A DNA stretch of 64,000 nucleotides from Eledone cirrhosa (taxonomy: Eukaryota): assembly GCA_964016885.1 (NCBI GenBank), contig OZ024754.1, forward strand, positions 2,046,001 through 2,110,000, in the 5' to 3' direction. The first letter of the stretch is position 1. Each line of letters opens with the position of its first letter. Both the position numbers and the translations under genes were made by a program. Positions 45,294-45,354 of the stretch are shown piece after piece. Under the pieces are notes generated by a model that was given only the letters and a program-made list of their open reading frames with translations, was not told where the DNA came from and did not search any database.

Positions 45294-45354
45294 TATTTTA
45301 TCTGACGAAAGCGTACTTAAATACAAATACCCTTGAAATACGTATAATAAAATG
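45294..45354 (+). ncRNA. Minimal type I hammerhead ribozyme (diverged family D variant)
   Basis: Stem I UAUUUUAU/AUAAAAUG; CUGACGA 45302-45308; stem II AAGcGUA/UACcCUU; GAAA 45335-45338; palindrome UACGUA; UA with cleavage predicted after 45346; family D tail (atatggttttataaa...) follows. Confidence 0.8.

Follow-up and report, generated by a model that had tools for sequence, protein, structure and literature searches.

The hammerheads of metazoan Penelope-like elements (PLEs), as presented in the accessible parts of Cervera and de la Pena (2014, PMC4209133), combine a long helix II with a palindromic loop III, show compensatory changes within families, occur as close pairs on opposite strands and cleave weakly as dimers. 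The portion of their alignment of 56 motifs (Fig. S3) open to us includes no cephalopod, and two of the motifs carry other mismatches at helix II pair 4. According to the available text on the anole Poseidon PLE (PAc, PMC11167929), the hammerhead lies shortly upstream of two RT starts defining an optional tail, the targets are AT-rich, cleavage by the ribozyme required protein, and insertion did not depend on the ribozyme. PLE hammerheads cut poorly in vitro, and in the only reconstituted system their activity was protein-dependent and dispensable for insertion. Regarding cephalopods, 31 recently active Penelope-like families were reported from Octopus vulgaris in a paper whose accessible text contains neither the word hammerhead nor ribozyme (PMC13282606), and the available part of a study of the giant squid gives 235 Rfam hammerhead 1 matches (PMC6962438).

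Here we examine a motif at positions 45294-45354 of a 64-kb stretch of DNA (the window, i.e., the whole stretch analysed) together with the other hammerheads of this window (Table 1). Very probably, a type I hammerhead is present here, within the 3' end of a truncated, likely Penelope-like repeat of very high abundance, and this hammerhead is predicted to cut after 45346 only as a pair.

Table 1. Hammerheads and associated repeat copies in the window
Feature	Position	Strand	Details
Type I hammerhead, subfamily D2	45294-45354	+	Strict scan, pair count, copy comparison
D1 comparison hammerheads	859-810; 2080-2129; 41917-41966	-; +; +	Letters read
Family E hammerhead	56126-56233	+	Core 56138; loop III UGUAUA; C·C at helix II pair 4; cut predicted at 56183; (TA)n 50 nt past cut
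Family F hammerhead	63667-63796	+	Core 63679; C17; helix II long, its pair 1 being U·U and its pair 4 C·C; cut predicted at 63742; (TA)n 54 nt past cut
D2 truncated repeat bearing the motif	45254-45392	+	Depth rise at about 45249-45255; family likeness stops near 45392
SINE-like repeat of another family	45391-45616		Rearranged pieces; abuts 3' end of D2 copy
D1 copy, short 3' end	759-973	-	49 nt past cut, then (TA)n; hammerhead 859-810; inverted partner of 1966-2266
D1 copy with tail	1966-2266	+	3' end 88 nt longer (tail), then (TA)n; hammerhead 2080-2129
D1 copy with tail, without core	41667-41808	-	Inverted, 5'-truncated; starts 5 nt before predicted cut, inside palindromic loop
D1 copy, short 3' end	41826-42017	+	Short 3' end, then (TA)n; hammerhead 41917-41966

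Hammerhead motifs in the window

Re-reading the sequence at 45294-45354 gave the same letters and the same hammerhead layout as the earlier note on this DNA. Helix I comprises 8 bp (45294-45301 with 45347-45354) and is followed by the core CUGACGA (45302-45308, plus strand), by helix II (AAGcGUA/UACcCUU, 45309-45315 with 45328-45334), in which a C·C mismatch at pair 4 separates two blocks of 3 bp, and by GAAA at 45335-45338. Loop III reads UACGUA, and U16.1 and A17 lie at 45345-45346. The core of this type I hammerhead spans 45302-45346 (plus strand), and its layout predicts a cut after 45346.

A strict scan of both strands detected four motifs, with cores at 859 (minus strand), 2080, 41917 and 45302 (plus strand), while 100 block-wise dinucleotide shuffles of the window yielded none. 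The hammerheads of families E and F came from a profile search and a relaxed scan. The latter returned five matches at a score of at least 9 against a shuffle mean of 0.055; it missed the core at 63679 (pair 1 U·U), and among its six matches there is a chance overlap at 41837. The core CUGANGA, GAAA and UH are present in this order in all six motifs of the window. Rfam gave six matches up to an E value of 10 for 45250-45400, no hammerhead being among them, nor was there one among the best 150 of 287 matches for the whole window. As a monomer, the 45294 motif folds no better than shuffles (z +0.47). The same letter pattern was sought elsewhere, and both helices were found in none of 19 viral and none of 113 metagenome matches (of about 270 metagenome matches estimated); a family-specific pattern had no match in metagenomes.

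Comparison with the D1 copies

Compared with copy 859, the 45294 motif bears 11 differences in 49 positions, of which 10 are transitions. None of them breaks a pair or alters an invariant core letter, in agreement with the earlier note, which had described the core as unchanged. The note had also presented the differences as compensatory. This is true of three two-sided changes, namely pair 2 of helix II (G-C to A-U), pair 5 of helix II (A-U to G-C) and the centre of loop III (UA to CG), the last of which counts as two-sided only if it pairs between two molecules. The remainder are one-sided G·U to A-U swaps, which keep their pairs and comprise the helix I changes and pair 1 of helix II; this latter pair is already A-U in copy 41917. 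Furthermore, the three D1 copies that had been used as separate comparisons are near-identical (214/215 and 107/113 positions) and represent one lineage, and the original evidence consequently amounts to a single comparison of two lineages.

When 11 changes, 90% of them transitions, were placed at random on copy 859, the core, the pairs and the self-pairing of the loop were all kept in 90 of 400,000 trials. The same model gave 75 and 155 of 400,000 for the other two D1 copies, and 0-1 of 400,000 when transitions were set at 50%, all these frequencies ignoring that only core-keeping copies get noticed. It therefore seems highly improbable that chance or DNA-level effects, such as AT-rich hairpins, CpG decay or inverted-repeat conversion, merely mimic compensation. 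While the excess of transitions, the CpG involved in the loop change, the two lineages behind the first comparison and the folding of the monomer are what such effects could produce, they do not account for the absence of the motif from shuffles, the lack of both helices in viral and metagenome matches, the outcome of this neutral simulation or the tolerance of G·U pairs, as in RNA.

Covariation among six motifs

Families E and F have no 3' sequence in common with family D. In an alignment of the six motifs, which represent four lineages, 93.1% of 102 cells pair, and 10 of 17 pairs changed on both sides. The paired cells amount to 87.5% in helix I and 97.2% in helix II, and 10 of the 14 pairs of these two helices change on both sides. 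The best slid control had 57% of its cells paired. None of 500 shuffles reached the covariation score of the six motifs, a control that is inflated by related rows and applies to a structure drawn from the same six sequences. A covariance model built from the six motifs recovered only these training motifs and no seventh in the window, the next match scoring 17 bits. Selection on the hammerhead fold is supported by these data, more strongly than the earlier note could show.

Helix II extends over at least seven positions in all six motifs. While all 12 paired columns at positions 1-7 of this helix vary across the motifs, both cytosines of pair 4 are invariant, forming C·C in six of six. Pair 1 is A-U, G·U, G-C or U·U. 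Loop III is strictly palindromic in five motifs and wobble-palindromic in one. The bulged base after A9 is absent from all six, and the G10.1-C11.1 pair from five. With four lineages in which the helix II pairs vary and the C·C and end distance (see below) stay fixed, the window offers a natural series for testing the role of the hammerhead.

Loop III and dimer folding

Four public read runs were aligned on 45200-45400 at 80% likeness, representing at most three samples from two studies. Runs X1 and X2 derive from one sample, which may be the source of the window, and X4 and X5 are RAD-seq runs with uneven sampling of loci. The X4(+) reads bear U at 45341 in 18,850 of 19,028 and A at 45342 in 5,651 of 19,028, from which it follows that at least 69% of them read UAUGUA (UG in at least 13,199 of 19,028). 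UAUGUA is the largest loop class in X1, X2, X4+ and X5+, and UAUAUA in X4- and X5-. Hence the loop, which had been called still palindromic, is so in the UACGUA of the 45294 copy but not strictly in the family, a major loop of which self-pairs through two U·G wobbles. The non-pairing CA centre accounts for at most 178 of 19,028 reads in X4+ and for at most 69/2,689, 170/21,659 and 93/3,055 in the other read sets, i.e., at most 0.8-3.0% of raw reads, these being mostly D1-type. CpG decay would be expected to produce CA as often as UG, which further argues against a DNA-level origin of the changes.

The centre of loop III thus exists in three pairing states, U-A, U·G and C-G, with UAUGUA as the wobble intermediate. 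These states provide natural evidence for self-pairing of the loop between two RNAs. The helix III shared by two molecules was calculated at -3.2 kcal/mol for UAUAUA, -2.2 for UAUGUA, -6.5 for UACGUA and +0.4 for UACAUA. As a hairpin within a monomer, helix III costs +4.7 kcal/mol, and it is favourable only between two molecules.

The double hammerhead gains 12.6-15.9 kcal/mol over a pair of active monomers in all six motifs. For each of the six there is nevertheless an alternative cofold of still lower energy, by 1.0 kcal/mol for the 45294 copy and by 4.5-13.3 for the rest, and dimer action of these motifs consequently stays a prediction of the folding model. Two freely folded monomers are also lower than the double hammerhead in three of the six, and the window contains no same-strand tandem partner with a matching loop for the 45294 motif. 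Regarding the earlier proposal of selection on a fold that acts as a dimer, its first part is upheld by the covariation and the neutral simulation, and dimer action is backed by the energies and by literature on other species.

A subfamily and its decayed copy

Contig read depth is 25-32 on the unique flank, climbs above 1,000 at about 45249-45255, family likeness beginning near 45250, and reaches 13,000-20,000 over the D2 helix II and 1.2-1.6 million over 45354-45374, none of these depths being a copy number. The larger family takes up 23,233 of 12.5 million X4 reads. The reads show that helix II of the 45294 motif belongs to a multi-copy subfamily inside a far larger family. At the proximal helix II positions, this copy agrees with the majority of the reads aligning there, and the compensatory changes are therefore traits of the subfamily.

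Other letters are private to the 45294 copy, the reads carrying T at 45324 (97% of X1 depth), T at 45325 (99%), G at 45327 (98.5%) and A at 45354 (99.6%). These private changes shorten helix II, the majority G at 45327 being able to pair with C45316. N7 is variable, with C to U in 29% of X1 depth. Among the variants shown for the reads (22 further ones being hidden), none falls on an invariant core position or on either mismatch cytosine. The partners of pair 6 change at similar rates (U to C in 12/60, 6/57, 5/39 and 6/95; A to G in 13/55, 7/52, 3/48 and 6/92), those of pair 9 less evenly (U to C in 21/54, 7/57, 6/33 and 21/95; A to G in 11/42, 11/53, 6/31 and 19/92), both sets being marginal counts, not read-level linkage.

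The reads exhibit no depth step at the predicted cut (19,264 to 19,631 in X4+), nor do molecule ends accumulate there, which suggests that most genomic copies were made from uncut RNA. Selection would have acted on parent elements, of which the 45294 copy would be a dead, slightly decayed product.

Repeat copies and the putative parent element

The D1 copies form two inverted pairs (973-759 with 1966-2266, and 41808-41667 with 41826-42017). In each pair, the cut is followed by 49 nt at one end and by 137 nt at the other, the 88-nt tail being found on one side only. The four motif-bearing ends, from three families, lie 49, 49, 50 and 54 nt past the cut, compared with a background of 2.5% (2,487 of 98,528 positions) for a range chosen after the fact. 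Six of seven 3' ends run into (TA)n; the 45294 copy instead stops about 46 nt past the cut, against the SINE-like repeat. The 992 bp between the first inverted pair (974-1965), which are not repeated elsewhere in the window and matched no protein, may be element body or captured flank. Upstream of the family F hammerhead, an 18-bp inverted repeat (63450-63467 and 63518-63535) possibly indicates where that insertion was inverted.

This end distance, kept in three families without a common 3' sequence, brings up the possibility that the fold is retained as a binding or positioning signal for the RT-endonuclease, self-cleavage being vestigial or incidental. This is unlikely as the sole explanation in our view, and it can coexist with the reading that we prefer. 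Conservation of a C·C that the catalytic core does not need, the smooth read depth across the cut and, as far as the available text goes, the normal in vitro insertion of anole hammerhead mutants (PMC11167929) would all fit such a signal; the catalytic core letters and the UH site are nevertheless kept in six of six motifs, and the self-pairing of loop III between molecules persists through UA, UG and CG, as expected for a helix of the active site. It is possible, if doubtful, that the motifs represent an undescribed subclass of dimeric retrotransposon hammerheads, in which the invariant C·C would be a docking site, for the partner helix I or the element RT-endonuclease, replacing the missing loop-loop contact, and the folded ribozyme would be a ruler setting the RT start, irrespective of sequence, at about 50 nt beyond the cut.

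Sequences of a parent RT or GIY-YIG protein were sought around the motifs. Thirty read-through translations, covering about 7.6 of 64 kb, gave six unrelated Pfam matches below cut-off. Two word-index searches for a parent protein were empty, the list of ORFs gave none near the motifs, and the single phmmer match, P0001, is the translation of a tandem repeat of 55 residues, 19 of which bear a chance likeness. A stretch at 985-1128 (minus strand) resembling a GIY-YIG C-terminus is unsupported as such. As no RT or GIY-YIG sequence was found in these searches, which dealt with short copies, membership of the Penelope-like elements rests on architecture.

A short non-autonomous, retrozyme-like element was also considered, i.e., a solo monomer of arrays located elsewhere that would use PLE machinery and circular RNA. 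No ORF was found near any copy, the 3' ends of D1 and D2 are nearly identical while their helices II differ, and, in the available part of bioRxiv 10.64898/2026.07.22.740005, animal retrozymes are derived from PLE pLTRs, many being monomers. This element type is improbable all the same, since none of the seven copies in the window is a head-to-tail tandem unit, the reads exhibit no same-strand joint back to an earlier place (two opposite-strand joints, over a 201-nt stretch, were seen), and the ragged 5' ends and inverted pairs are those of truncated PLEs.

Three other candidates were rejected. The motifs at 41917 and 45302, 3.4 kb apart, do not seem to be the two pLTRs of one element, as their subfamilies and loops differ and no ORF was found in 41670-44400. 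The CAG at 45288-45290 resembles a 3' splice site and suggested an intron reaching up to helix I, like that of Drosophila Penelope; this is contradicted by its G, which is private to this copy, A being found in 3,287 of 3,760 depth. Finally, insertions starting at the cut as a rule would be suggested by one case 5 nt upstream of the cut, but there is no depth step there.

Proposed mechanism

Based on the preferred reading, that of a Penelope-like parent, the two motifs of a tandem transcript (pLTR-ORF-pLTR) would swap their helix I strands, and their self-complementary A-loop-U stretches would join into an 8-bp shared helix III. This helix would allow slow, probably protein-assisted cleavage, trimming the multimeric RNA. 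The RT of the element would start copying about 50 nt downstream of the cut, or about 137 nt downstream, giving the tail, and its product would go into (TA)n, usually stopping early and leaving short truncated copies. Fixation of the compensatory changes would have taken place while parent elements were active. The genomic copies in the window are themselves unlikely to act as ribozymes, because the close pairs are inverted, so that read-through RNA would pair a motif with its antisense, and because the 45294 copy is decayed.

Other repeats in the window

The SINE-like family of about 190 bp that abuts the D2 copy occurs in at least ten places (3969-4179, 12182-12343, 12912-13032, 13736-13929, 26944-27348, 28422-28610, 43986-44183, 45391-45616, 53837-53916 and 58453-58654), and is putatively an octopus-type SINE; this repeat and the microsatellite load would fit an octopus-like cephalopod as host, while a 15-letter motif of the repeat at 45391-45616 had no match in a literature search. 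Another family, likewise about 190 bp long and often beside (TA)n, contains a long internal palindrome and is found at 479-674, 13105-13308, 33461-33645, 34708-34892, 45993-46188, 51377-51567 and 55625-55812. A satellite at 35834-36434 consists of six 100-bp units with 97% matches; scans and the covariance model found no hammerhead in it, and a 13-letter stretch of it recurs, possibly by chance, shortly before the D2 copy, at about 45236-45248. Long fold-back sequences lie at 26081-26286, 32952-33082 and 42829-43027, the last having an Rfam MIR847 match below threshold (73.9 of 184 bits). A near-identical duplication (about 32639-33645 and 33890-34892, repeating every 1.25 kb or so) is either genuine or an artefact of the assembly, and an array of 11-bp units occupies 9439-10223.

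Comparison with known systems

Covarying, dimer-acting Penelope hammerheads are already known since 2014 (PMC4209133, as far as its accessible parts go), and a bare claim of compensatory changes adds little to that work. Among the systems described there, the window motifs most resemble those of Aedes aegypti and Saccoglossus (2), with the same type I core, long helix II and self-complementary loop III. They are also alike in the numerous covarying families within one genome, their mostly single truncated copies, their opposite-strand pairs and their predicted dimer action, and the unfavourable intramolecular helix III is as published for metazoan type I motifs. Dimer cleavage is likewise ascribed, in the citing text available to us (PMC6765202), to the PLE-associated small variants with diminished stem III of Lunse, Weinberg and Breaker.

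The copies themselves match the accessible PLE description (PMC8557442, section 6) in being truncated and inverted, with a one-sided tail and (TA)n targets. They differ from the anole PAc, according to the part of PMC11167929 at hand, by a tail of 88 nt versus 30-40 nt there, by a short end about 50 nt past the cut versus 85-92 nt, and by the absence of a recovered ORF. Non-LTR retrozymes (PMC7229834; bioRxiv 10.64898/2026.07.22.740005, both for their available text) likewise carry a type I hammerhead and are non-coding animal repeats with a relationship to the ends of PLEs; they are built of tandem 150-450 bp units giving circular RNAs, unlike anything found in the window.

The bulge after A9, lacking in all six window motifs, is also absent from two of the 56 motifs in the available alignment of PMC4209133. 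As the bulge and the G10.1-C11.1 pair are consensus traits with exceptions in that alignment, we class the window motifs as a variant of the PLE minimal hammerhead. Helix I reaches 8 bp here and helix II pair 1 is variable, in contrast to the motifs of that paper. A search of the literature, most subscription papers falling outside it, revealed no apparent description of a helix II C-C mismatch or of cephalopod PLE hammerheads. What this analysis adds is the invariance of the C·C, a span between cut and element end that stays constant from family to family, and a wobble intermediate in loop III, although the C·C may already be in Lunse et al. By our reading of Fig. S3 in PMC4209133, C·C occupies pair 4 of helix II in none of the 56 motifs, compared with six of six in the window.
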